Positions 1-38,716 are shown, counted from the stretch's first letter. The stretch: DNA of 64,000 nt from Atractiella rhizophila (GCA_021432655.1 MU271234.1:45086-109085), one strand, 5' to 3'. The notes: generated by a model from the letters alone, not told the origin. Numbers and translations: made by a program.

Positions 1-3000
1 GCCTTCAATCCTTCGCTTCCCTTTCCCAAGACCTCCTCAGGCACACTTCTCGCTCTCCCTGTCCCCTCTCAATATCAGACAGAAAGATCAAACAGGTTGG
101 AAAGGGAACGGACACATCTCGAGTCTCCATCCTGCCCGCGCTAACTCTCGTGCTTTCTGGATCTGCACCGAAGGATCTTTCGCTAAGATCTCCTTCATCC
201 TTTCGCGCTGCCATATGAACATTTCTTTCCTTTTACCAGGCAGTTTTTCAAGGTCTTGAAGTGGAACCTGCCGAAGCACTAAACAAATATCGTCAACGCA
301 TGGACGTGATATGAGCAGAAGGCGTACGTTGAGGTAGTGGAGGAAGACCATCCCACTCCGCTTGAGCTAATTCTTTTGCCTTCACCTTGTCCATGTTTGG
401 CTCCTTAGCCATGTACTCTTCTACTTTTTGTTTCAGGAACGCCCACTTTTCCGGTTTCTGTCTAAGCTCTCCGGTTTCTAAGGGCATGAGAGCTGCTAAG
501 CGCGTCAGTCATCTGACCTCGATAAGCGGAGAAAAGGCAGACGTGGACTCTTGCTTGTAGTTGAGTTGTCGAGCTGCTTCTTCCTCCATTCGGCTCGAGC
601 GAGATGCCTTGCAGTAGCAAGTGGGATTTGTAGATCGTTACTGATGATCTCCTTCACTTTCTCACGCTGCCACAGCAACATTTCTCGCCGTCCCGGAGGT
701 AACTTGTCTAATTCTTCGATTGGAACCTGACGCAAGACTGAAGAAACTATCATCAGCGCTTGGGATACAATTTTGATCAAAAGATCTTACGGCGCTGGCT
801 TGGCAGAGGACGACCTCGAAAAAAACCATCCGGGAAGAGCGCTATTTGAAAGCGTGTCAGACCCTAACCAGTGGAGAAAAGGAAGAGGTTTGAGGACTCA
901 CGAGTAACAGGACGTGCTGCACCTCCAAAAGGCGTATTCAGGGTGTGATTCCTCCATTCTTGCCTTGCCACTTCAGTAGCTTCACTAGGTTTGAGGTTGG
1001 GTTGTTTGGCCATAATATCCTTCACCTTTTCTCTCATGAATAAGACGTGCTCTCGTCTGCGTGGGTGCAGCTTCTCCAGTTTCTCGTCTGCAACTGCAGT
1101 TCTCCTTGGAGCTATATGGTGTGATCTCATCAGCTTAGGAATGGAGCGGGGTAAGGTTCGTACGCTTGCTTAACTCGCGATACGCCTTCCACTCTGCAGC
1201 GGCTAGTTTGCGAAGTTCGAGGTACGACAAATCAGGTTTCTCTGCCCTCATGCTCCGAGCCCTCTGCTGAACGAAACGATGGTATTCGTGCATCGTCGGA
1301 GAGCTAGGGCCTCTCTCCACTGGTTTTGCTGCATTCCACGATTCATCAAACGGGCCATCGATTTTGAACTGAGTAGCTTACAAGCCTCTGTTTTCTTCCA
1401 CTCGTCCCTTGCTCTGTTCAGAGCCTGACTCCTGCTCAGGTTTGGTTCTGCTTCGATGAGCTCATCCGTCCTCCTCCTCACAAACAGATAGTACTCTTTT
1501 CGCTTTGGAGCAAGCTTCTGCAATCTCTCCGCAGGTACAAAACGGCCTGCATGTTGATTTCGAAATTTGACATCTGTTCATCATAGTTAGTTGGCTCAAT
1601 TGAATGTCTGAAGGAAGATCACTCCTACTTGTGGCAGGTAGACGAAATGCGGTCCAGAGTGCTCGGACTTCCTCGACAACCTCTGCTGCTGACAGATCCG
1701 GACTCCGTTCTTCAACGAGCTGGCTAAGGATGCGATCGTACTCGTGGGCATCGGATCTGGTCGCGGTCTTGTCCAAGGGAGTAGGCACTAGTTGAAGAAA
1801 GCCTGAGAGGTCCGGCTATAGCGGGGTGAAAGAGACTAACCGGGACGAGTTGAAACTGCTTCCCACTCTTTGATAGCAGCAAGCCGACAGTCTTGAGGGC
1901 TCTTCAACGTGTCCGACTGTGAAATGACTTTCTCTTTTTGTGTAATAAACTGGAAGAACTCCATCAATCCCTGAAGTTTTTCCTTCCCTCGCTTCAACCT
2001 TTCTGGATACCAGTCTTTGATGGCTTGTTTTCGCGCCACATCCTTAGACATAGTTGGATTTTCTTCTAAAAGCTTCTGTGCTCTTTGACGACGGAAGATG
2101 TAGAACTCTTTTTGCCCAGTACTTGCATCTTTGAGGCTGTCATACCTGGCCTTTGGGCACGGAGAATGAGCCAAGATATTTTCGACTGCTTTCTTGATTT
2201 CCGCAGCCAAATCTGTGCAGCAGATGAACAAGATGTCCACTATAACTTGAAATTCGTACCGATCTGGGCTGTGTACGACACAAGTCAGTGATTTTTTGCT
2301 TCTACGATGATGAAAGGCTTACGTATGTTGGACTCTTCCATTTTCGACAATTCAGTGGCAACTTGCCTATACGCATCCTTGAGACGTAAATCCGGGTTCT
2401 GAGCCAACATAAGCTGAGCTTTGTCGTCCAAGATTTGGCGGTAGAGCGTAGCAGTTGGCGGGGTGCCTATCTTAGGAACTGCCCATGGACGGGTGTTACT
2501 CAGAGTTCAGATCGTGTAAATAGCACTCACTCTGGAGACCTAAATCCTCGGTCCATGACCTGACTGCAAACGCATGCGCCTTTCTTTGAGTAAAATCAGG
2601 ATCTTTTTCCATTACCTGTGTCGTCACCTCGCGCAGAAAGGTAACGTATCGATCGTGTGATAGTTTGTTCGCGCTAAGATTTCTTTGCCGGTGCAACTTC
2701 CATTGGGCAATCGCTTGTCGTCTCGCTTCCTTGGCCGCACGAGCGGTCCATGATTTCGCTAAAGCTTTGGTCTCTCTCTCCTTCCATCGTGGGTCTAGTC
2801 CACCGAAACTGGTTTCAATCTGAGTTCTTCCATTTCCTTGACTGCACGCTGTTTGCCGGAGAGACGAAGATGTCATCCTCGCCATGCTCAAAGCATGGAA
2901 AACCTTGAATGGCGAAAGATGTTTCTGCTCTCCGCCAGCTTTGATTCCTGATTGTTCGAGTTCACACATAGAAGAGCAGGATAGCTAGCGTGGACGAACC

Positions 3001-6000
3001 GTGATCTCCTTGATTCCACTCATCCAGGACCACCTTTCGTAGTCGTGAGGCAGAGTAGTCAGGATGATCCCGCTCAAGCTGAGGATATCGAAGAGCAATG
3101 TGTTTCAAATAGAGATCCTCCTTTATGTCTTCTGTATTGATCACGCACTGGGTCAGTATTATGCACAACAAGATGTATGAGCAGGATCGAAAGTTGAAAC
3201 GTACGCGATATCGTTTGTTCCTTCAGAGGCCGACCTAAGCGTCGCCCTCGTCCAACCAAACTTGGTCTTGGGCCCGTATCTATCTTCTTATTGCCTGGGT
3301 CAGAAGGAGGACTAGTAAGTTGTTGGAGGATAAAGATTTTGGAGAGCGATGAGGGACAAACGGGCACGCCATTGCTCTCCCAAAACCTTGAGCCGCTGGC
3401 GACGAGGTATGGACGAATACTCAGGTTTCTCCACGTTTTGTGCGTAAAACAGTTGCCAATCTGAAATTCTTTTCTTTAACATTCCAGCTTTGATTCCTAG
3501 ATAGAGATACCAGTGAACGATAACCTTTAATACTCGCAGAAAGAAAAGCATACCATTCTCCCCATCATTCCATTCCTTCAATAGAAGGTCTCTCTTTGCA
3601 GATTCTGCCCAGTCAGGGTATTCATTCTGGATCTGAGAGTACCTGTCGGAAAGGTGCTTGATGAAACGGTCATGGATCCCATCACGTTGCGCGTCGCCTT
3701 TCACCCAGCAAATGAAAGCCTGGCTTGATGACCGGAGAATCACTTACCGTGATGGTCTTTGTCTTTAGCAGGTCGCCCCGCTGCTCGTTGAACCTTCGCT
3801 TCGACGTCATTGGGATGAACTTTGAACTACTTTGAATGAGGACTCTACGAGCCAAAGTGAAAACGAACCCGATCTCCATTCTGCAGCAATCTCTTTCTTG
3901 AATTGGCGTCGTCCTTGATTTGTGAACCCGGATTCCTTAAGACGCTGGGCAAAAAACACATCCCATTCAGACAGTCTCTGCCTTTGTTTGGCTGTCTTCA
4001 TTCCTGAACGGAGCAGTTATGAATTGGAGCCAAATGCCGATGGCAAGACGAACCATGTGCTCCTTCGTTCCATTCTTTCAGCACCTCTGCCCTTGTCTCT
4101 TCACCGGTCCACTCGGGATTTTCAGCCTGTAGCTGTGAATATCGAGATGCAAGGTGCCTGAACCAAGCATCTCGTTCTGCTGGCCCATCGTTCTTTAAAG
4201 CATCTGTTCCATTCTCCCTATGACGGGCCATTTGCACTACCAACACGAATAAATGAGCCATGCGGAGATCTAAGGGAGGAAAAGCTTGCTTTGTCTCCAC
4301 TCTCGGCCCATGACCTTCTTGAACTCGCGTCGACGTAGATCCTTGTATTCGGATCCATTCACCCGTCGAGAGTAAAACACCTCCCACGGAGTTAGTTGGA
4401 GTCTCTGCCTCCCTCCCTGTGATCCTGACAACAGTCGCATGTGAAATTTGCATGAGGCTTGGTGACGGCGACGAACCATGTTCTCCTTCATTCCAATCAC
4501 TTAATACCTTTGCCCTTATCATATCATCTGTCCATTGCGGATTCTCTGCCTCGACCTTTGCATATCCAGAAACAACGTGATCGTACCAAAGCTGTTGGAG
4601 GGCTGTCCACATCAACGCCGATGAATGAAGCTGCCCAGATAAATCCATACGCTTACGAGACTGGCGAGGTTGAACAGCCTTAAAGGGGGCTTTCATAACA
4701 TCTCTTCAGGTCAACTTTCAAGGGCAACGCAAGGGGAGACGAACCTTTGTCCCGCTCTTTACGAAACTCCTTCCAAAACAGCGTACGTCCCGTCCCCAAA
4801 ACGCGCTCCCTCTCTACCGCCTGGGTGTATAAGACCATTTCTTGACTAAGTCGCGAGACCTTTCTCCCTACAATAGATATTCCCCAGCGAACGGGATGAG
4901 AAAACCAATACATGATTTGAGAAAATGATGAAAGCAAACCAAGTCCTTTGGCATTCCACTCCTCTAATACCTTCTGTCTAATCGTAGCCTCTTCCCATTC
5001 TGGATTCATCTCCTGAAGCTCTTGGTAACGAGTTGCCACATGCGTTTTGAACATATCTCGAATGGCTAAGGCGTCCAACAGCGAATAAGCACAGCTCGAA
5101 AGTAAAACGCGCATAACGGAAGCAGAAGCTTACGCAAGCTGGTAATTCTGTGGCTATGAAATGACTTTGGCGCGGCCTCGCCTTTTAGAAGCCAAGAATA
5201 AGCTCAGATTACACCCAAAAAGGGAGACGCGCACCACCTGAAATGATTTCACTTTTCTCCTCCATCTCCCTCCAAATCTGCCCTCGATCGACATTCTCCC
5301 AACCCATCTTGTCCAGTGTTTGAGCATACCGAACAGTGATCGGTGTAAGCCATCCTTTGTTCTTCCCTTCACATACGAAAACAACAAACGTGAGTAACCG
5401 ACATCGTACTTCTGCCCACGGAGGGAGTAGTGATGAAAACACACCAGATACCCCAGCCCAATCTTCCAACACTCTGGCTCGTATCTCGTCATCCCGCCAC
5501 TGAGGGTTCTCAGCCTGAACCTTGGGGTATCGTTGAGCGACGTATTTGAGAAACTCTGATGGCGGAATGAGCCCCAACCGATTATGTGATTAAGAACAAA
5601 ACAAACCATCATCATCCAACTCAGGGTTGGGCTCCTTGACTGCGTCGTGCAACACCATTAATGCAGATCTCTCATTGACGAGATGAAACACGAACTCTGT
5701 TTCCACTCTCTCCTCAAGTTGTCCATGATTTCATGTCGATCACGGGTCTCCCATCCCACCTTCTCGAGTATTTGTGCAAACCGTACAATGACCGAAGAAA
5801 TGCTCGACCGGGGTTTCCCTTCTATGAATCAGCGAGCAACTCTTAGCTTGACTTCTCCCAAGAACAGAGTTACCCGAAACACACCATTCTGTTGATTCCA
5901 TTCTTTCAACATTCTTTTACGTATAGCGAAATCCTGCAGTTGTGGATTCGCGTCCTTGAGCTCCTTGTACCGTCTAACAATGTACTTGAAGAAGTCTGTG

Positions 6001-7152
6001 TAACGCGCAAGGTCAGCTTTCATGTCGAACTCGAAGCGAGACGTGGGACGAGTTGACAATGGTGTTGGCATAATGAGAAAAAAGAACGTACGGTCGTGCG
6101 TTAGATCCGCCATTTTCCCTTTACCCTCTGTCCACGGCGTCAAACATAAGTGCATGTTGCAATGATTGTAGAAAAGAAACAGGACGCACTGCCTGACGTT
6201 TCCTCTACCTCCTTCAGCGTAACTTCCCGTTCGGACCCTGCCCAACCTGACTTCTCCAGTGCTTGACCATACCTCAGCTGTGGAGGTCTGATGGCCCCGC
6301 GCGGTCCCCAAGTTTTACCTGCCCATCGAGATGTCAGAAGACACTCAGTGATTGCAGAGGTGCTAAAAGCAACTGTGTGAGTCTCTGCAAAGGAAGAACG
6401 CACCAAACTGCACATTCCAGTCGACGATTATTTGTTTGCGGACCTCTTTGTCCGTCCATCCCGGATTGAGGTCCCTCAATTCAGCGTACCGCACGACGAT
6501 GAATCTGTAGAAGGCTAAGGGCAAGACGAAGTCAGTTGCATGGATGTGGCTGGAAAGAAACACGCACCATATCTTGGTCCGTCGAGCTCAGAAGAGCGTT
6601 TTCGTGGCTGATCAAGCTTCGACTTTTTCAATTGCATTATCGGAGCCCTCCACCATCTCCTCCGGCTAAGGGGCGCCTTTACGCTAGCGCCTACGACATA
6701 AGCGTCAGTGCGAGTGCATGCGTGCTCGGTATGGTCACGTACTTTCTTCTTCTGTTGCGAACTCGAAGCCAGTCCTAATGCAATATGCAAATTCTAGTTA
6801 ACGTTTTGAGAGACAATAGTAAAATATGGCTTACCCCTCCAAAAAAATATTCCACCACCTTCGTATGTAACTCTCCTGTGCGATGTCCTCTTCCATCAAA
6901 GAAGTTTGAAGCGTCTCCTCCTTTTCATCAATGACAATGGTAGGATCCGAGAGTACGTTAGCCTGTCGAGTAAGAGGCAGCGGAAGCGGAAAGTGTTTCT
7001 GAAGGGAATAAATCTTGGTATGATGCTTTCGACGAGCAGTTGCAATCCTACTCCAAATACTTCAGCTTCAGCACGGTTGACGTGTAACGGTCTGCTTACA
7101 ATGGTGCAGATAAATATGAGCTCCTCCGTGCAATTATGGAGAGTAAAGACAT
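1..7152 (-). CDS. Giant multi-exon protein with about 25 or more tandem truncated HMG-box/YABBY-like helical repeats and a predicted mitochondrial presequence; 3' end lies beyond the window
   Basis: Chain of short minus-strand exons, each with a motif like F/Y-x2-F...NP-x-W/L...K/R...EW (e.g. FFKYIVRRYKELKDANPQLQDFAIRKRMLKEW; EYHRFVQQRARSMRAEKPDLSYLELRKLAAAEW), separated by ~50-nt GT-AG introns. ATG at 7152 plus a 52-nt intron gives MSLLSIIARRSSYLSAPLIATARRKHHT. Confidence 0.75.
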
Positions 7153-7413
7153 CCAAGCAGGTGCCAAAATGTGCCGGTCGACAGTTATACGTGCACCAAT
7201 AACTTTTCTTTGGCTTGACGGTCGGAAATGTAACTCTTATGCGGTACCGACACATAAATGCACATTGATGTATGACAGTAAGTAAATTCAGATCAGATAG
7301 GCAATCTACATTTGTGGGAGAATTCAAATTTGATATCCGAGGGACAAAATCCTCCCATGCACTCTTACAAATTATAGTACTCAGCGTGAAACTTGAAGGT
7401 TGAAACCGGTCGA

Positions 7414-9202: not shown

Positions 9203-12000
9203 ATGGCCACTCCATCTGGCACCCCCGCGAATCCACCAGCCGACTCGCTCGACTCCAGCTTCTCCAAATGGACGCACTTCGTCGCCCGCCGCTTCAGCAA
9301 AGGAAAAGGAAAGTCACGCTCCTCAAACGCCAAAGACGGCCCCCTCCCAATCTTCGAGTCCGCATTCCAGCCCTCCTCTTCCTCCGCCGTCGCAGGTACA
9401 GGTGCAAGCGCCGCATTCGTATTCGGAGACTCGGACGACGAGGGAGATGAGGAAGAGTATGCGCATTTGTTCGACAAGACGTTGGATGATGGCGAGCACG
9501 GGATGACGGAGGAAGAGTTCAGGGAGTACGTTACGCCTTTTTGATTCACTTGGGAACTGTGATAGTATCTTCGTCCGTTGTTTGTTGTGCTGAAGATTCG
9601 TCGTGGGAAGGATAGAAGGGTCGATTCGAGAGGCGCTGGAGAAATATCCGCCGAAATTGAATGCGAGCGGATCGAGTGGGAGCTATTTTGTGAGGGATGG
9701 AGAAGGAAAGGTTAGAGGAATATTTAAACCCAAGGTGAGTGAGCTTTGGTCTGTGCAAGAAGGGAAAACGTGGTGTTGCGACGTCATATTGCACATGACA
9801 CTGCTTTTAGAAGTTGTGGAGAGCTGGAGGAGTGTGACCAATGCGCCAGCTCAGAAGGGATAGACAGGAAACCTTTTCTTACTTATAGCTACTCTTCACA
9901 CGTTGGAGCATGGAAACTACCTGTATCCAATGGTATATCCTCAAAATGGTGACGTAACATGCTGCTTATTATAGGATAATCATAAACAGTACGAGAGGTG
10001 TTGGATGTCTTAGAAGTTTGAATGTTGCAAGTTGAAGTAGTTTGGTGGGAAGCAGAAATTGCGCGAAATTTGCAAAGTACCTTAATTTTTTGTGGCTCTT
10101 CCCTGAAAGATGCTTCCCATGTCTATCCTGACACACTTCCAATGAGTCCTCGACAATCCCATCTGATGCAGTGCTATCAATAACAGGACGAAGAGCCCTA
10201 CGGCTCCCTCAATCCCAAATGGACGAAATGGTTCCACCGCGTCATCCTCACCCGAATCCTCGGCTCCCAATCCTTCGGTCGTTCCTGCCTCATCCCCAAC
10301 CTTTCCTACCTCTCCGAATCCTGCGCCTCCCTCCTCGACCGTCGACTGGGGACGAACGTGGTGCCGAGGACCGAAGTCGTGGCGTTTAGCAGCCCCAGCT
10401 TTTATTATGATTGGATCGACAGAGAGAGGGCGAAGAGGAGGAAGAAACCGAGACCGTTGCCGGAGAAGGTGGGCAGTTTGCAGATCTTTCTTAAGGGTTA
10501 TCAAGGCGCGTTCAACCATTCTCTCCCTGTTTCATGGCTAATGTATTTGCTTTGTTTTTGGTAGATGCTTCCCTGTTTCTGAGGCTGCATCCGTGGCCTG
10601 GACGTGCGGTTGCAGACACGTATGCCAATGAATCGCATAGAACCAAACGTCGCAGCTTCTTTGGCTGGGCCCGCTTCGTCTGCGGACGGAGGGGGAAGGA
10701 CGAGAACGATGACGGGGAATGGTGGACGTGGGGAGCGGAGGAGAAAGCAGGCGGGGGTAAAGAAGGATTCTCGTGGACGGACGACCTGATAGACGAGTTT
10801 CGAATCGAGATGGAGAAGCTCGTCATCCTCGATGTCATGATTCGAAACACCGATCGGGGGCTAGATAACTTCATGATTCGTTATTGTCCCCCCTCGCCTT
10901 CGTCAACTACATCCTCTTCGTCCCCCAGCAACGGAAATGGAAATCGTCAACCACATATCCATCTTGCAGCTATCGATAACTCTCTCGCTTTCCCTCACCA
11001 ACATCCTTCAGGTTATCGCTCTTATGCATACGGATGGCTCTGGCTCCCCGTCTCCCTCATAGGACAGCCATTCACCTCTACCACCAGGAAACATTTCATA
11101 CCACTCCTAGAATCAAAAGAATGGTGGAGCGAGACAATCTGGCAGTTACGAAAGAGGTTTGAAAAGGACGAGGGGTTCGATGAACGGTTATTCAATAAGC
11201 AAATGGCGGTCATGAAAGGCCAAGGATTATCGATCCTCAACGCCCTTCGGAATCCAGAACACGGTCCACTTGAGCTCTGTGCCGCAGACCGTCTTCTCGT
11301 CCACGATGAAATCGTCGACGTTCCAGCCTCCGCCCTCAAAGCGGCTTCAGGGTCGGCACCCAGTCCACCGGGCTCTCCAATCAAGTCCCCAACTCCCCTT
11401 TCGCGCTCCATCACCTCCGTACTCTCCGAACCGCGTCGGATACCGTCCATGATGCGCAGCTCGACATACGCTCCAACGGCCAGTGGACCGATGCAAATCT
11501 CGGCGTCTGTGGGATCTCTGGGCAGGAACGCTGGAGTGGAATGGAACAGTATGACGGGATGGCAGAAGTTGGAGTGGATGGCCACGTCTCCCACCATCTC
11601 TAACGCTACGTTGCAGGAAGAGTGGGGAACGAACTCCGTACCTGATGTCAGGTCCGGTCCATCACGTTGGAAGTGGCCAGGGAGGATGAGGCGGCCGACT
11701 GTAGGGTCAGGTCAGGAGTATAGGAGGATACCAGATTTGGAGACGGTGGGAGAAGAGGAAGGCGGCCCTGATACACCCTCAGAGGAGAGAGTGCTTCCGT
11801 CTGCTACTAGTAGAGGGTTCCATAAAAGGTCGAAGACGGAATTGCCCAGGGGGAGTCGGTTAATGTGGGCGAGGGATGAGAGGGTGGAGGAGGAGGGGAA
11901 GGAAGAGACGAGGAAAGCGATAAAGGAGAGAGTGGAAGTGGTCACTGCCAGTACGTCGTTGCTTTCGCTTCTCACTTCAAAAGCTAATAAATTTTGTTGA
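9203..12000 (+). CDS. LSB6: Type II phosphatidylinositol 4-kinase
   Basis: Motifs GSSGSYFV, GIFKPK|DEEPYGSLNPKWTKW, EKVGSLQIF, LDVMIRNTDRGLDNFMI, AAIDNSLAFP. Confidence 0.92.
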
Positions 12001-14175: not shown

Positions 14176-17100
14176 TCACAATGAGATGTTTAGAATACGA
14201 ACTGTTGTGTCATCGCTTGCAACGGCGAGACGTAGGTTCTCGAGGCGTTTTGGGCAGAGCTGAATGTGATTGATGGTTGAATAGGGGCTTGGAATTCTGT
14301 GCTCCAGAGTGAATAGGATTGAGTCACAAGGTACAGAGTACACTCACGTTAGGGCTATTCTGTTTATTGGCTGCCACTCGCTCGCTGACCGTTGATAAAG
14401 CAATAACGTTCCAGATTCCAACCCAACAGCCATGACAATACTGGATCTCAGGTCAGACTAAACAATAACGGAACCAAAGGACGAACCTATCACTTTTGTT
14501 CGCGGGAGTGGTCAGGCAAACGCTATTTCCAGAATCTTCCAGCTTAATTGTGCTTGTGCACATGAACTCAATTTTGCCTTGCACTGTTTTTGGTTCCCAT
14601 GTCTTGATCTATACAACATAGTGAGTTGCCGGAGATTAAAAGGACAAGACGAACCGTTTTGTCTCTAGAGGAAGTGACAAAGAATTGGTCCTCATGAAAA
14701 GCGCAATCCCAAATAATTCTTCCATGCGCTTTCGCCTCCCGCTTCATCAAATGGTAATGCCCATCGTCTTCTACTCACACATAAGAATCGATTACATTCC
14801 CAGGTTGCAGAAGACGCACTAGACTTCTCCCAGATTACCCAACTCCTATCCCTCCCCACAGCTAGCAGCCATTGATCATCCTTACTCCAAGCCATCCTCG
14901 TGATTGTCAGGGTATGACCAGCTAGCGGCTCTCCAAAAGATTTATAGGACTTGGAATCGAAAAGGCGGACGGCGGCATGTGTGGCAGAAGTTGATTTGCA
15001 TGCTGTGGCAATCAGGTGACAGGAACGAGAGATCGACAGAGAGAAAAGCTCGTATCCGTGGCCATAAATCTTATCGACCTTTACAATAGATACATCATCA
15101 GGTTGACCGTGGAGCAGAATCTAAGTGACGTACTTCTGGCCAGAGGGTAGATGTCATGAGCTCCTCTTCTGATGGCGGATGCCGTGGTCCATCCTGTTCT
15201 TTGAAACATCTCGGTAAGTTATTTTCGGGAAAGGTGGAGTAAAGATATCCTACTTTGACTTGCGACAGTCCCACCTGCTCCACCTTCGGCCTTATTTGAC
15301 AGACCCAATGCCGGAAGCAGCGCAACGTCAGCTTTCTTCCCGCTAGAAGTATCCTCATCCCCCTCGATGCCCAATACGAGTTTCCTGGTCGCCTGCCAGC
15401 TCATGGTATCCTCAAACACCCTCGCAATCTTCTCATCCGCCGCACAGACGAATCTATCCCTCCCGATCCAATCCACTGCCCAAATTTCCCATCCGTGCAC
15501 CTGTGGTCTCCCAACCTCCCTCCAACATCCATCCTTAGCCACGCGTCCATGGATCCTCGAGGTCCTATCTACACCACAGCTCATGACCCATTCGCCTTCA
15601 GGTTCCCACGCTATCCCTTTCACGGCGCCAAAATGCCCTCCAACTCCCAGCTCCGACTTCCACTCCCCTTCGCCTTCAGATAGGGATGAAGTGGAGCAGG
15701 ACCAAACGTGCCATGCTCCTCCCCATCCTGAAGCTAACACCGTCGTCCGATTTGGGGTTATGGACCAGAGTGCACCAAAGAAACCGAGATTCGTCCCTTT
15801 TTCCAGCTCTCCAAATCTCTCCGACACAATCCATAAGGATTCGTCGGATGAGGTGGAAGACGATGTTGGAGACCAGAGGATAAGGGAACGGTCTAGGGAT
15901 GTGGATAGAAGGGAAGGTGAGGTGAAAGAGGAGGGAGAAAAGTGAAGCGAAGTGACTGGAGAGGTGTGAGAGGCTAGGACCGCATAAGGACGAATGGATA
16001 GTTGTCTGCCGCCCTGAAATGAGTAATGCAGCAAGTCTAAGAGAGACCACGCACACTGTTGAGGACAAGTTGAAAACCTGTTCTTTCAGTTCCAACTCCT
16101 CCTCCTCGCCTCCTAGTGCGTCAAGTTCCTCCAATCCCTCGAGAGTTTCGAATACCGCTCCTGGCTCCTCTTCCTTCCGCTCCTCCTTCACCTCCCTCAT
16201 ACGTACGCTCCACAACCGAATGTAAGAATCGTGGCTCCCCGTAGCCAGCAGCATTCCATCTTCACGGTCGCTCCTTTCGTCATTCCTAGATCTTATCGGC
16301 GGAATGTAGATGTCGAGGCAGTCGACCCAGTTCGTATGTCCTTTCAATCCTATGGCGCGCTTGAGGATCGCATGCTTAGCTGGGGCAATCTGGGTGGAAA
16401 CGTAGATGGAAACGACTCTCGATGTGAGACAAAGGAACAGCAGCATAGTGTCTGAAAATATATTAGTATCCGCAATTTCCTCAGCAATGGTGAGACATAC
16501 CTTCCCTTCTTGAAGTCGAGACAAAGACCATCTCAGCGTCCAAGGCGAAAACAAGAGTGTCCTCCTTAGCTTTCCCTTTCCCCTCTTCCGTTCGCAGATT
16601 TAGCACCTGTGATGGTTCCTCGACAGACTTCTCAACATCCCATACCTTGACGCGTCCGTCAGAGGAAGCTGTGATCAGGGTCGGGAAATCGAATGCGAGA
16701 GCGGAGATGGAGTGGGATGGGTGAGCTTTGATAGTTTTGTGGATGCTCCACGCTTCCTACTTCCCCATTATGCATCAGTGCTTCATTGTCAGCTTTGGCA
16801 AGCACAGTGGAGGACAAACATTGTCAGCTTCCCTCCAGATGATGACTGTCCCTTCAGCATCTCCGGAGGCAAGACAGCTTTGCTGGGTAGGTGTCGTCGA
16901 TTCAGAGGAAACGCGTCGTCTTGAAAACTTGACCTTTGTGATTTCAGCTTTATGGCCGCTCAGCGCCTTCCAAATCCTCGCGTTTTGGTCCTACCCAACC
17001 ATACTCATCAATTGCTGTGACGAAGACGCCGTCATGAACTTACTTGAGTCTTCCATAGAGAAATGAGATTACAGGATCCAAACGCCAGCAGGCCGTCGCT

Positions 17101-17436: not shown

Positions 17437-20400
17437 TCAGTCCCATGCACTTCTCCCTCTCCAACTCGGATTTGACCCTGACCCAGGCAATGGAGGTTTA
17501 AATCGACTCGGACCTCCATTCTGGTGAGGTGGCGGCCTGTAACTGCTCCCACCACGATAACTATCTCCTTGACTTGCATGACTGGGACGATAACTATCTG
17601 ACTGGTTCGTTCGTACTGGACTCCTGCTTCTACGCTCGTTACCTGAATCTCGTCGATCTCCTCCCCATCGACTATGTGGCGGTGACGCGTGAGAATGTCG
17701 TCCTCGTGGTGGATCGACCTCCGGTCGAGGAGGAAGACCTGCACTAGCAGGTGGCTGATAAGCAGGAGATCGATTGCTGTTGTCAGACTGATCGGAAGAT
17801 GGGACGTGGCCTGACTTCTTGATCCTCTTGATGTGAAGATTGTCCAATTTGACACGCTTGATCCCCGTCCCATCCAGATCTTCATCCATATCCCTCTCTG
17901 ACTTCCTTTTCTGCACACCCTTCTCCACTGAACTTGGCCGCCTCCGCTCGTCATCTTCAGTCTCTTCGCTGTCGCGCTTCCGCTTCACAAAAGTCGAAGT
18001 CTCTGCAACGGCTCCATTGGGATTGGAGTTTCGAGGATCGTCTATTGATGTGTCGCGTGGAGCCTCCTTGTTCGAAATCTTCCGCTTAGCTGACGGTTTC
18101 GTCACACCGTTCGCTTGGGTTTTCGATTTTTTTGGCGCCGTTTTTCTCTTCGGAGGAGTATCTTCAGGTTCAGTAAGATCACTGTCTGAGTCCGGAAGCT
18201 TTCGTTTCTTGCCGGCGGGAGAGTCGGGAGGTGGTTGGGAAGGGGAGATTTTGTCGTATCTGTGGCATGCATGGTCGGGTTGAGTCGCAGGAGAAGGAAA
18301 GGAGCTTACAGTTTTGCGATGTCACTACCTGATAGTTCGCCAGGCCAATATCCCGCAACGTGATCCCAGATTTTCTGCGTCCAATTCTCGACTTCGGAAG
18401 TGGGACATCGCTTCATTCGAAGCACTTGCGGTATTCGATCTCCGACGCCTTTCACGACCCTTCGGAAAATGTCGATATTACTGGAGACGTTGAGATCTTT
18501 GAGGCCGTTAAGATCATCGATCAAAGGTGCAGTAGTCTCTTCGCATGCCTCCTGGAGCGGATTTCCCTGAGGTTCGACTTCATCTTCCGCCTCACTCTTT
18601 TTCTTCGACTTGGCTTTCCTTTCCGCTTTCGTCGAATTGTGATAGTACTCCCGAAGTTTTCGAAGCAGAGTATCACCTCGTCGTTGGAGGTGAATTCCCT
18701 GAGGGCCGCTCTTCTTCAGCTTACCGGCATCCTTCTCCTTCCCCTCCCCTCCCTTCTTCCCCTCGTCGAGAGCAAACAGTCCCTTCAACCCCAGCTTCTC
18801 ATCCTTCTCTATATCAGCCCAATTCTGCATCCCATGCAGCCAAATTCCGATCAACAGAGATTGATCATTATCCTCTGTCCACGTCTCTGAAAATTGAGCC
18901 TTCTGGAAGGTGTCGAGCGGCATCTCCCACTGATACGGGTCTTTAGCTTTGTCGAGGTACAAGTGCAAGATTTTGAGATCTTCTGCTCGCTGAACAAATT
19001 GGCCAGCATTGATATCAGATAGGGTATTGTATGACGCCGTGACGACTTTGTTCTTCATCGACTGAGTGATGGTGACTCCTTCGGACTTTTGTCTCTCCAA
19101 ATCAGCAGCAGACTTTGCAAGTGCCTCTTTGCATGCGACGAGGATATTATCGTATGCCTGCTCCACCTTTGCTCGATTTTTCGTTTCTAACTTCGCGTCT
19201 TTGACCACTCGATCGTACCTCCGCTTCAAGTCCCCAAAACGCTGAACGCTTCGAGTGAGCCCTCGGAGATCCTTCGTTGTAAGCGACATGCTCTTTTCGG
19301 CAGCAGTTTTCCTAGCACCAGTAGGACCAGGCTTCTTCTTCCCCTTCTTCCCATCTTTCGTGTCATCGTCCTTCGAAGGTGGCGGGGGTGGCTCCTTCAC
19401 CTCAGGTCCTTTTCTCCTCTCCTTCAAAGCTGCGGCGAGGGCCTCTTCCTTCCTCAGCTCCTGCGCAGCGCGTTCACGATCCTCCAGAGGAATGATATCG
19501 TCCCAAGAGGTGGTGTCAGCTTTGATGTCTTGGACTTTGAGAGACTCCAAAAACTCTTCACCCCCTAGAGAGACGCCAGCAGCGTCTTGAGTGGTTTCGT
19601 AGGACTCTGCTTGATTGAGTACCTCGTCCAGGTCAAGCTCTTCGAGTTTCGCTTGGTTGGCATCGGTTGCGAAAATGTTCGACGCGCCGTACTTGAGGAT
19701 CGATTGGAGTTCATCCTTTGAGAACATGTCCTTGCCATTCTTAGACTTCTCCTTCCTCTCGTCTCCAATATTCTGACCAGAAGTGTCCATAGCGCTAATC
19801 ACTGTAGACATTTCCCCGTAAACAACAGCAGCAGAAAGTAATGGTCACGCACCAGCGTGCTCCAGCACTCGCTTTTGATGTGCTCTTTGAAGGACATCCT
19901 CTTCGACTGAACCCTTCGTCAGGAAACGATAAACGGAGACATGATTTTTCTGTCCGATACGATGTGCCCTTGCCTGAGCTTGAAGATCCTTTCATACCTG
20001 TGAGAAATGAGCAACAGGTGGCAATATCACACACGTTCTGAGGATTCCAGTCAGAATCAAAGATGATCACAGTGTCAGCAGTTTCGAGATTAATTCCCAA
20101 TCCACCTGCGCGTGTGGAGAGAAGGAAAGCAAAATCTGGAGAGTCGGCGGCGTTGAAATGGTCCATGGAACGTCGTCTCAGATCTGCAGGTGTAGAACCG
20201 TCTAAGCGTTGGAATTGGTAACCCCTCATCCGAAGGTAGTCCGACAGGATGTCACTGGCCCCGAAAAGGTATTAACATTTGTAGTTATGCGGCAAAGGAA
20301 AGATATACAGCATGCGAACCATTTGACTGAAAATCAGCACGCGATGACCATCCTGTTTGCACCGTTGCAGAAGCTTGTCCAAAAGGATCATTTTCCCACT

Positions 20401-23285
20401 ATTGACAACAAGGTTCTTCATAGCAGCGTTTCGATCGACGTTGTCGTCCACGTTCTCTGCGCCATCAAAGAGGAACGGGTGGTTGCAACACTTTTTCAAC
20501 TCCACTATTACGTTAAGGAGCGAGACTTGTGTATTTGCACTAATGAGCGCTTCGTAGTTCTATCTCCATTCCTTTTAGCAAAGTTGAAATCAAGGATGGA
20601 CGAACACACCCTTGAAAGGATGTTTTTGTACCACTTTGTCTGCATCTCGCTCATTTCAACTCTCAATATTCGCTCGCTCTTTGTCGGCAGACTCTTGATA
20701 ACGTCTTTCTTCAACCTTCGCAACATGAGCGTCTCCAGCTTTCCATGCAGTTCCTTAATCTTCTCCTCCTTATCCTCATCCTCGAGATCAAATTGGTCAT
20801 TGAGGTCGAAAGATTCCGGATGGAGGAAATGCATCAGGCACAACAGTTCTATAAGAAAGTGTAAGCCTGCTCTTCCAGAAGTGAACTAAGACTGAACCTT
20901 TAACGCTATTTTGCAGTGGTGTTCCTGTGATGAGAAGTTTCGCTCCAGTATTGAAGCCAATAAGGGCTTGATAAAGTTGGCTGTTGTGGTCCTTCAATCG
21001 ATGTGCCTATATTTTCTGTTTAGCTCCTGTGGCAGCTAAGAATGAGGGAACTCACTTCATCGACAATCAAATGCTGGTACTTATACCGCTGGAGCCACTT
21101 GACGTCCTTAAGGAGGATCTCGTATGTAGTAAGGATGGCATTGAACTTTGGTTTTTTCCTTTCTCCAAACTCATATTGCCTAATGATCTCCCTCGATTTT
21201 GACGAACCGATGTAAGTGACGACGTTGAGAGCTGGGGCCCAGTAGGCAATTTGGGCTTGCCAGGCGGAGAGGGTGGAGAGGGGGACGATGATGAGGAAAG
21301 GCCCATATTGTTGCATCGTGTTGAAAAGGTAGGAGAGCATGGCGCATGTCTGGACAGTTTTTCCTAGACCCATCTATTGCATTCCAAACTGTTAGCATTG
21401 CACCAATCGCAGGGAAGCAGGAACGGAGGCGGAGGTGGTAAAAGTCGAGATGTACCTCGTCTGCAAGTATGCCATTCTTGTAAGAGCACCAGCAATAGAT
21501 TAACCAGTTCAGTCCAACCATCTGAAAATCTTTCAGATTTCCTCCTGTGGCTGTAATGTACTCTGGCTCCTCTTCAATTTTCTTGAACACAGGTCGCTTC
21601 TTGGTTGATGGGGCACTTCGATGCGGGAGGGTAGGTTTACTGATTCGCTCCATATATTCATCGATCTGCTTCGCCGCGATGCTCGCAACATCATCATGTA
21701 TTTCCCAAGTTGCGACATCGTGTTGAAGGCCTTGCCATTTGATGTAGTATTCGACTGCATTCCATCTTCTTTCAATCTGCAGGGAATAGGAAACAAGGAG
21801 ACTCACGATGTTCTCTATCACAATCAATACCAGCTGGCGCGTTTCTCTGATCGATGACCCGCTCAACAGTCTTCCACATCTCCATCTCATTTCTCCTCCT
21901 CTCCCTTTCGATATTATGCGTCTCAATATCCTCTGGCGTCGTTTCCGTGCTCTTCAAAAACGCAATCTCCGGCTCCACAAAAGCTTTAATGTAGTTCTCC
22001 ACCTTCCGAAACCCCTTGAACCGCTTCAGGTACTCATAAGACTCCCAGGTATTGTGCAAGTGGGAATACGCCTTCCATTTAATTAGGTAACGAAGGTTCT
22101 GTCGCGGGAGGACCTCTGCATTCGCTGATGCCCAATAACACAGTTGATCGCAGATCAGTCCACTCCCCAAGAACGCAGGAAGAGAACGTACGCGGGGCAT
22201 CCGGCTCCAGTTTCCAATCATGAACAGAATCGATCATATCCTCCTCAACCTCGTCTCCATCCTCATTCCGAACCATCTCCCTCTCCTCTTCGTCCTCCTC
22301 GTCATCAAGCGCAAACATTGCCTCCTCGTTGTAATTCGGAAGCTCCCTACCGTTTCGTCCAATACGAGGCATCTCAAAATCCGTCACATTGAGCGACCCA
22401 CCTCCTCCACTTCCCATTTTGGCCTTCCTCTTCTTCGAACCGCGCTTTTTCTTCCCTCGTGATTTACCTCCATATTCATCGTCGTAATCTGAGGACGATG
22501 ACGCAGACGATTCTTCCGTTGAAAGTTCAGGAGCTCTCGCTGTGGCATGGGTACTTTGAGAAAGTGAAACATTGAAGACAAAACAGAAGGGCAGACCTTT
22601 CGATTTCCCAACTTTCTTGCTCGACCTCTTCTTCTTACGGGCATATCCATCATCCTCAGTCTCTTCTGAATCATCCAGCGACTTCTCTCTCTGCCTCCAA
22701 GTATCAGCTCTTTCGTGTCGGATGTGGGATAGGGAAGAAAACATACAAAGCTCTTGGCTGCTGCTCTCCCCTTCATTCATTCAGGCACTCTCAGTCCTCA
22801 TCCCATACCACAAGAGGAAGGAAGGGACACACCGATCTCCTGAGTCCATATAACTCTGGGTTATCTGCCAAACCTTCCAGCGCGAACTTCCCCCGCGCCT
22901 TCCTGCCTGCTCTTCCAGGGACGACAACGGGAGGAGAGTCCGCCTCCTCCGTTCCCACTTCGGGCTCTGGGTTCACATCCCTCTCTTCATCATCTTCATC
23001 TCCTTCCTCATCTCCTTCGTGCTCAGAACCGGAGCCTTCAGGCTTATAATCCGACTCTGCGCTCACTTCCTCCTTTTCAGAAGCAGTGGATGGATCAGCG
23101 TCCATATCTCCCTCCCCATCTTCATCTCCTTCCCCATCCCCATTCACCGTTGATGATTGGAAATTTGGTGTAAATGCTCCTTCGATAGGTGGGATCGTCT
23201 GTGTGTCGATTCGGGAGGTCGAGGCGAGGGGAGTGATGGGTGGCAAAGTCTCTGGGATGACCGAGGAGCTCTCCATACCGTCCAT
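17437..23285 (-). CDS. CHD1: Chromodomain helicase DNA-binding protein 1 (SNF2-family remodeler)
   Basis: Double chromodomain ([24 protein letters not shown]), [54 protein letters not shown]. Confidence 0.96.
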
Positions 23286-38535: not shown

Positions 38536-38716
38536 NNNNNNNNNNNNNNNNNNNNNNNNNNNNNNNNNNNNNNNNNNNNNNNNNNNNNNNNNNNNNNNNN
38601 NNNNNNNNNNNNNNNNNNNNNNNNNNNNNNNNNNNNNNNNNNNNNNNNNNNNNNNNNNNNNNNNNNNNNNNNNNNNNNNNNNNNNNNNNNNNNNNNNNNN
38701 NNNNNNNNNNNNNNNN
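38536..38716. other. Assembly gap (run of N)
   Basis: Continuous Ns. Confidence 1.

Follow-up and report, generated by a model that had tools for sequence, protein, structure and literature searches.

YABBY transcription factors bind DNA. The family is described as plant-specific, and its domain has been likened to helices 1 and 2 of the HMG (high mobility group) box (PMC5808293). The box itself consists of three helices in an L-shape, and the HMG proteins of mitochondria normally carry one or two of them (PMC7463775). The fungal mitochondrial proteins form a fast-evolving class (PMC7463775, PMC6483251); in Aspergillus nidulans, a mitochondrial HMG protein combines one canonical box with two degenerate 'Shadow-HMG-boxes' (PMC7463775), and this protein, named HmbB, is dually located, in mitochondria and the nucleus (PMC6483251). 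Here we describe a gene of the basidiomycete Atractiella rhizophila that occupies positions 1-7152, on the minus strand, of a 64,000-nucleotide stretch of genomic DNA (GCA_021432655.1, MU271234.1:45086-109085; the whole stretch is referred to as the window). The gene encodes an array of about 27 short modules, which we regard as a real and extreme form of the HMG/YABBY-type half box that is restricted to one lineage. If this reading is right, our searches met no longer array of HMG-type modules: it has 26-27 units, against one or two in most HMG proteins (PMC7463775) and a maximum of ten among the matches (the environmental protein P0013).

The modules fall into three types, here called A, B and C, and parts of the array are present in public databases as two proteins, P0001 and P0002. 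With the HMG box (HMGB1, UBF, SOX2, Abf2, TFAM) the modules share, in register, a first helix with a conserved aromatic residue, a turn that often consists of Asn-Pro and a hydrophobic residue, and a second helix that ends in the conserved Trp; in B and C modules, helix 1 is preceded by a basic stretch as well. Unlike the HMG box, the array has neither helix 3 nor the L-shape, the A modules are not basic, and single modules score below the family cutoffs; no complete HMG box was found in the array, either by Pfam scans or in the structural model of P0002. The likeness to YABBY lies in the two-helix domain and in sub-threshold matches on module C7 and P0002, whereas the array is fungal, has many copies instead of one, and lacks the C2C2 zinc finger, no zinc-finger family being reported by the Pfam scan on the pieces of open reading frame (ORF), P0001 or P0002. 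Finally, Abf2, Gcf1, mtHMG1 and HmbB resemble the array protein in that HMG-type modules, in part degenerate, come after a presequence-like N-terminus, but these proteins have one to three boxes including complete ones, in contrast to the roughly 27 half boxes found here.

Gene model, transcript evidence and public annotation

On the minus strand of positions 1-7152, the stop-to-stop ORFs form a chain of short pieces, spread over all three frames, with a repeated helix-turn-helix-Trp pattern. The short open pieces, their GT..AG boundaries and the gaps of 47-96 bases between them indicate an intron-rich fungal gene, and the G+C content of the locus (0.43-0.54) is unremarkable. A codon table was trained on the obvious module pieces, a dynamic-programming exon chain was run three times, and the junctions were inspected by hand. 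The final splice model describes a single gene of 38 exons and 37 introns, the latter 47-96 bases long with a median of 54. Its coding sequence of 4955 bases, for at least 1651 residues, starts with an ATG at 7152, is free of stops and is open at base 1. Phase 1 is found for 35 of the 37 introns, a count that is biased by the phase-1 bonus carried by the third exon-chain run; in the second run, made without this bonus, every intron past exon 3 was already in phase 1. Exons 4-37 are each a multiple of three. In the N-terminal half, the repeat unit is composed of an A exon (111-183 bases), a B exon (123-135 bases) and a small linker exon (33-90 bases), the linker exon being fused to the A6 exon in one of the units. 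The gene represents a clean example of growth through phase-1 exon duplication. The first two dynamic-programming models were set aside as they missed in-frame introns, and two introns of earlier models, a GC-donor intron at 2887-2837 and one at 554-478, were dropped because they were contradicted by pieces of complementary DNA (cDNA).

Two public proteins are letter-for-letter products of the locus: P0001, with 852 residues, begins with the ATG at 7152 and extends as far as module B7, and P0002, with 311 residues, covers modules C7 to C11. Both are named 'hypothetical protein' and derive from the same contig of 129,690 bases, and each stands as a singleton at 90% identity. For the acceptor of intron 1, P0001 uses a site two codons earlier than our model. 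This acceptor and introns 4656-4603, 4053-3992, 3868-3781 and 3747-3698 are the uncertain junctions of the model, at which P0001 disagrees with it or a joint is non-canonical.

Transcript evidence was obtained from a public run (X1), its kind not on record, which is stored as contigs and contains 0.41 of the sampled words; its contigs were taken as cDNA-like only because they skip GT..AG introns. Ten such contigs, placed on positions 1-7300, cover 30 of 30 bins and carry 37 joints, 15 of which were inspected. The ends were CT..AC on the plus strand, equal to GT..AG on the minus strand, in 13 of the 15, and the contigs thus behave as spliced minus-strand cDNA. For nine of the inspected joints, counting the micro-exon 2268-2260 (eight letters between 2213 and 2323), the model made ahead of the reads already had the exact splice sites; at four others one or both of its sites were off and were then corrected. 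One joint demonstrates an in-frame intron, 3553-3497, that had been seen by eye and missed by the program. The joint 3699-3758, located at the small linker exon before A7, is non-canonical with ten unlike letters between its ends; it could stem from a local difference in sequence between the run and the window, or from a misplaced micro-exon.

The two annotated borders are both bridged. A 3497-base contig reaching from 1857 to beyond 4236 spans the P0001 stop near 3283, and a 1604-base contig, which has one end near 1722 and at the other passes base 1 by about 309 bases, spans the P0002 start. Such bridging falls short of formal proof of one molecule; it does, however, identify the public two-gene split as an annotation artefact. 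The annotation is hereby corrected: one gene had been divided into two hypothetical proteins, with its middle third left unannotated. The break between contigs at about 1722-1857 coincides with variant sites at 1723-1750, where the contig depths are 13.4 and 26.3, as expected of an assembly bubble. This cluster of differences (depths 13.4 versus 26.3) and another at 6968-7014 (9.4 versus 24.9) resemble two alleles or strains.

Between positions 168 and 7014, 26 differences are listed for the window against the contigs, of which 19 are synonymous and seven non-synonymous in the frame of the model. From the coding sequence and the observed mix of transitions and transversions, 7.4 of 26 would be expected to be synonymous (binomial P 3.3e-6), and the excess indicates purifying selection over the full extent of the reading frame. 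We are hence highly confident that the locus is one expressed, constrained nuclear gene. This agrees with the original prediction, made from the bare sequence, of one continuous spliced minus-strand gene that is still open at the window edge: no stop is present up to base 1, and the contig that spans the P0002 start runs on past it.

The modules and their likeness to HMG boxes

The modules were placed by coordinates, as 27 stretches of 36 residues, and then aligned. There are 26 clear modules and one degenerate module, B8, in an order in which A and B alternate eight times and are followed by eleven C modules. The A modules (n=8) possess invariant Tyr, Pro, Arg and Trp columns, and the C modules (n=11) a Pro at the turn and a nearly invariant Trp. 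The seven clear B modules begin with a basic stretch and share a Leu-Ser/Thr pair and a pair of aromatic residues. Pro is absent from their turn, and the terminal Trp, which is usually present, is missing in three. The originally predicted number of about 27 modules was thereby recovered, but the single helix-Pro-helix-Trp pattern ascribed to them has to be replaced by three types, one of which departs from it and includes a degenerate member.

A profile built from all 27 modules finds 27 stretches within the locus, with E values from 2.5e-5 to 2.7e-11 (self-inclusive), and just two weak stretches, at E 0.5 and 0.85, in the six-frame translation of the remaining ~57 kb. Profiles of single types recover all their own members; B8 is missed by the B-only profile. 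Across types, the A profile weakly matches C3 (E 0.006) and C7 (E 0.048), the C profile weakly matches A3 (E 0.14), and the B profile matches no A and no C module. Compared directly by hhalign, A and C align in register (85%, E 5.9e-6). Identity between paralogues amounts to 22-56% among A and 10-40% among B modules, and the A and B partners gave no signal of co-duplication (Mantel r 0.16, p 0.24).

To what extent these modules resemble HMG boxes was assessed with a reference profile of seven canonical tandem HMG-box proteins, compared by hhalign. The C modules align to it at 95.4% (E 1.7e-8, 35 columns), the C exons at 93.6% (E 2.1e-7, 44 columns), the A modules at 92.2% (E 6e-7, 36 columns) and the B modules at 76.5% (E 2.2e-5, 48 columns), with the alignment of B taking in the basic strand before helix 1. 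For every module type, the alignment stops at or just past the conserved Trp, in register. None of 100 column shuffles per query reached the observed score (maxima of 12.7-17 versus 32-44 observed), and reversed queries scored 10.8-12.8.

Searches with the all-module profile and with the C-exon profile mostly led to HMG boxes. Over 1.84 billion representative proteins, the all-27 profile returned 44 matches at E <= 0.001, two of them the locus's own products. Among the 42 non-self matches, 35 contain HMG_box above its cutoff, one contains YABBY only, and six are bacterial or unknown repeat proteins. In the PDB, 10 of the 14 matches of the same profile are HMG boxes (UBF1 at E 0.084), as are three of the four matches of the C-exon profile, with the yeast mitochondrial Abf2 as the best at a marginal E of 0.034. 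The Pfam gathering cutoffs are 25.4 bits for HMG_box (PF00505) and 28.6 bits for YABBY (PF04690). For HMG_box, P0002, with its five C modules, scores 30.2 bits, above the cutoff, and P0001 19.8 bits; the best YABBY scores, on C7 and P0002, are 18-22 bits and under the cutoff. Taken together, the profiles suggest that the modules probably derive from helices 1-2 of the HMG box. The HMG/YABBY-like reading put forward originally finds support as a remote similarity in sequence; it does not extend to family calls on single modules or to a specific fold.

Structural models were generated with AlphaFold2 for P0001 and P0002. For P0002, the mean predicted local distance difference test score (pLDDT) is 72.8 and the predicted template modelling score (pTM) 0.25. 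In each C module, the model joins a first helix (17-20 residues) through a loop of five residues to a second one (14-22 residues), and block pLDDT values reach 96; short helices precede some of the modules, and the linkers, with pLDDT <50, are predicted to be disordered. In the P0001 model, the A modules appear as hairpins (block pLDDT up to 83) and the B modules are of low confidence. Modelling, which had been suggested along with the original prediction, thus yielded confident hairpins and disordered linkers for the C part. Foldseek of the P0002 model against the PDB placed a tandem HMG box complex in its top row (E 0.23), with TFAM and HMGB1 further down, and VIA-align in its wide setting listed HMG domains at Z 5.3 and 4.8. 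The ESM Atlas gave DUF6434 (0.81) and HMG_box (0.75), both under the level that counts. The predicted fold is a generic two-helix hairpin, and as the fold searches are unspecific, the case for HMG ancestry rests on the sequence profiles.

Relatives of the array protein were not recovered. Among the 1.84 billion representatives, beyond the locus's own two products, only P0003 matched at E <= 1e-10 (six stretches, no Pfam HMG_box), and six is also the maximum number of matched stretches in any non-self match, versus 14 in P0001. The C3-C4 exon showed no relative among longer proteins in a word-based search, residues 130-850 of P0001 found only themselves among 5.8 billion clusters, within 468-1491 residues, and JGI metagenome contigs searched with P0001 gave 25 pattern matches, none of which was confirmed. 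No published title on Atractiella rhizophila, among the matches listed, concerns this gene; the literature search was not aimed at long half-box arrays. The expectation that no comparable protein has been described is therefore borne out in the databases searched, though environmental proteins with three to four half boxes and with ten boxes exist. P0025 (507 residues) and P0021 (305 residues) have three to four tandem half boxes of HMG/YABBY type and, in common with the array, no evident helix 3, and P0013 (868 residues) shares with it the alternation of two box types. All three differ by far fewer units and by Pfam scores that are much clearer, with 63-103 bits for YABBY and as much as 341 bits for HMG_box, and no specific kinship to the array protein is detectable beyond the module type. 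Similar punctuation occurs in the environmental P0041, with six helix-Asn-Pro-helix repeats that lack the Trp, and in the bacterial P0003, P0009 and P0045 (the latter two from Candidatus Margulisbacteria), with tandem repeats of 31-32 residues punctuated by Glu-Asn-Pro and Trp; none of these four has an HMG_box call above the cutoff. P0003 has no such match in Pfam, and P0009 only an HMG_WDHD1 row at 18.7 bits versus a cutoff of 51.6.

A number of observations weigh against a mitochondrial protein built of HMG-derived modules. No single module rises above the HMG_box or YABBY cutoff (HMG_box 16.5-24.1 bits), and an HMG_box match of any strength is present in three of 21 ORF pieces and two of 11 C exons. 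The Pfam alignments to HMG_box reach no further than profile position 44-58 of 69, and the Trp is followed by linkers that are short or predicted to be disordered; helix 3 is missing, and the module thus fails full membership of the HMG_box family. Direct hhalign of B against A and against C is not significant (E 0.1 and 0.13). In the PDB, the 36-column C-only profile matched no HMG box, the B profile matched nothing, and the A-only profile matched NDUFA2 over 16-17 residues at E 0.17-0.8. The seven reference HMG proteins were picked among the matches of the all-27 profile, so that the comparison is not selection-free. The bacterial look-alikes show that an Asn-Pro...Trp motif can recur without HMG ancestry. 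Both AlphaFold2 models were made without an alignment, and that of P0001 is poor (mean pLDDT 43.3). For the P0002 model, Foldseek against the PDB returned nothing at E <= 0.001, and the best VIA-align Z of 6.2 belongs to unrelated hairpins and lies in the chance range for helical models. The A modules are near neutral and several are acidic, unlike canonical HMG boxes. At the 5' end, one contig departs from the window at 7130 in exon 1, with 23 unlike letters and no splice acceptor there, and another continues on the genomic sequence upstream of the ATG, past 7293, for a further 255 bases or more; these ends could represent an alternative first exon or read-through from an upstream gene.

As for NDUFA2 (L51_S25_CI-B8, thioredoxin-like), an identity of the A modules with this protein was considered and rejected, as the match is short and partial and the second half of the module is predicted to be helical.

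Proposed role and rival explanations

The first 51 residues contain five Arg, three Lys, three His, nine Ser/Thr and 14 Ala/Leu, and no Asp or Glu, in agreement with the acid-free stretch of about 50 residues noted originally; the alternative first-intron acceptor of P0001 does not alter this lack of acidic residues. By composition, it would fit a mitochondrial presequence. The net charge of the whole model protein is +72. For the modules, the net charge is -4 to +4 in A, -2 to +5 in the seven clear B, +6 in the degenerate B8 stretch and -6 to +3 in C. A large part of the positive charge is thus borne by the linkers.

We propose that the product of this nuclear gene, 1651 residues or longer, is built as beads on a string. 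Its first 50 or so residues, which are basic, acid-free and rich in hydroxylated ones, would resemble a mitochondrial presequence. Each module would form a two-helix hairpin, with about 17-20 residues per helix, matching HMG helix 1, the turn and helix 2 up to the Trp, and the hairpins would be strung on flexible, mostly basic linkers. The array appears to have grown by tandem duplication of phase-1 exons, with copies that are now old and diverged and are still under purifying selection. Many weak contacts of HMG/YABBY type, together with the basic linkers, may allow one molecule to coat, bridge or condense DNA, for which the mitochondrial nucleoid would be the most probable site. The individual steps differ in strength. 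Binding of nucleic acid by the array is slightly favoured, and a mitochondrial location is evenly balanced. The combined picture of a multivalent, DNA-condensing HMG half-box protein of the mitochondrial nucleoid is accordingly tentative, and we hold it at a little below even. A broader scenario, in which the usual two-box mitochondrial packaging protein was, in Atractiellomycetes, replaced or joined by a giant 'stickers and spacers' condenser of mitochondrial DNA with some 27 half boxes, acting without sharp bending, is speculative and, at present, unlikely.

The same HMG likeness would equally serve a nuclear architectural factor of chromatin or ribosomal DNA, similar to UBF, with degenerate HMG-type modules and a basic N-terminus that is not an import signal. 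The multi-box profile matches are ordinary HMGB-like proteins with two to ten boxes, the fungal HmbB occurs in both mitochondria and the nucleus (PMC6483251), and the transcript has no settled 5' end, all of which would be in line with such a factor. We consider it unlikely, however, since the acid-free first 51 residues, rich in Arg, Ser, Leu and Ala, would better fit a presequence than the usual start of a nuclear protein, and neither an acidic tail nor another nuclear HMGB hallmark is present within the window. A scaffold, structural or for protein-protein contacts, that has nothing to do with nucleic acids, and for which the HMG likeness would be a functionless relic or the result of convergence on a pattern of helix, Asn-Pro turn, helix and Trp, would account for the absent helix 3, the neutral to acidic A modules and the generic hairpins of the fold searches. 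The preference of the A-only profile for the 16-17-residue NDUFA2 stretch in the PDB, and the similar punctuation in P0003, P0009, P0045 and P0041 without an HMG_box call above the cutoff, point the same way. Such a scaffold is a minor candidate in our estimate, as the three module types align full-length and in register to canonical HMG boxes, far above the shuffles, B and C modules carry the basic stretch before helix 1, and the linkers and the whole protein are basic. Furthermore, DNA-binding factors with an HMG-like domain of two helices have a precedent in YABBY.

A presequence-like N-terminus and, after it, numerous units of two helices, each about 36 residues long, are also reminiscent of mitochondrial RNA-binding helical repeats of the PPR, OPR or HPR kind, where each hairpin would touch RNA. 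We judge this to be quite improbable: no Pfam match to PPR or related repeats was obtained on any piece, the likeness in sequence points to HMG boxes, and the hairpins are unstacked in the model, with linkers of 15-30 residues that are predicted to be disordered and a pTM of 0.25 (a single-sequence model cannot exclude packing). That the locus instead comprises two or more independent genes, as annotated, or a decaying repeat array without a working gene, is suggested by the public records, in which P0001 and P0002 are separated by an unannotated gap, and by the broken cDNA contigs at about 1722-1857. Spliced contigs do, however, span the two annotated borders, with none of the 30 bins left uncovered, the break falls on the variant sites at 1723-1750 in the manner of an assembly bubble, one frame stays open through 38 exons, and 19 of the 26 differences, from 168 to 7014, are synonymous in that frame. 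Separate genes or a decayed array are thus highly improbable.

If the proposed DNA-condensing half-box protein is real, the front half of the HMG box can persist under selection as a repeat without helix 3, and the gene would offer a test case for multivalency, as opposed to strong bending, in the organisation of organelle DNA. The broader scenario of a 'stickers and spacers' condenser, if true, would represent a new physical solution to nucleoid packaging, and an autonomous two-helix HMG unit outside plants. Should the array not bind nucleic acid, it would be merely a lineage-restricted repeat protein of modest interest.

Features and surroundings of the locus

The coordinates of the gene, its modules and selected exons and introns are collected below.

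Features of the array gene in the window, listed from the whole gene and its 5' end to its last visible exon
Feature	Position	Strand	Evidence and remarks
Whole gene within window	1..7152	-	splice model, cDNA-like contigs over 30 bins, synonymous excess, P0001/P0002 overlap; 3' end past base 1
Start codon, exon 1, intron 7099-7048, start of exon 2; presequence-like N-terminus	6948..7152	-	model and composition
A1	6408..6515	-	A-only profile E 1.6e-19, self-inclusive
B1, without terminal Trp	6185..6292	-	placement and profile
A2	5889..5996	-	placement and profile
B2	5694..5801	-	placement and profile
A3	5449..5556	-	placement and profile; Pfam HMG_box 19.6 bits on ORF; C-only profile E 0.14
B3, without terminal Trp	5242..5349	-	placement and profile
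A4	4947..5054	-	placement and profile
B4, without terminal Trp	4743..4850	-	placement and profile
A5	4484..4591	-	placement and profile
B5	4288..4395	-	placement and profile
Proposed GC-AG intron between B5 and A6 exon	4237..4289	-	donor GC; contig piece begins exactly at 4236; junction common to P0001
A6	4061..4168	-	placement and profile
B6	3867..3974	-	placement and profile
A7	3561..3668	-	placement and profile
B7	3360..3467	-	placement and profile
A8	3007..3114	-	placement and profile
Degenerate B8 region	2691..2947	-	B-like start ~2945-2850; 2691-2798 used as B8 in alignment
C1	2544..2651	-	placement and profile
C2, without terminal Trp	2339..2446	-	placement and profile
Micro-exon, 9 bases, between C2 and C3	2260..2268	-	predicted by exon-chain program; cDNA contig skips 2214-2322, 8 letters between
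C3	2001..2108	-	placement and profile; A-only profile E 0.006
C4	1854..1961	-	placement and profile
C5	1645..1752	-	placement and profile
C6	1389..1496	-	placement and profile
C7, best single Pfam HMG_box match	1180..1287	-	24.0-24.1 bits, profile positions 5-47 of 69; YABBY 18-18.6 bits
C8	945..1052	-	placement and profile; HMG_box 16.5 bits
C9	577..684	-	placement and profile
C10	344..451	-	placement and profile
C11	118..225	-	placement and profile
Last exon visible, open at window edge	1..58	-	splice model; joint skipping 58-112 in cDNA contig

The neighbours of the array gene are ordinary nuclear genes and provide no clue to the function of its product. An ORF piece at 10495-12000 on the plus strand matches PI3/PI4 kinase, and pieces at 15219-16085 and 18306-21953, both on the minus strand, match WD40 repeats and a chromatin remodeller resembling CHD1, with chromo, HTH and C-terminal domains. 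Further along, the window contains an assembly gap of 181 N at 38536-38716.

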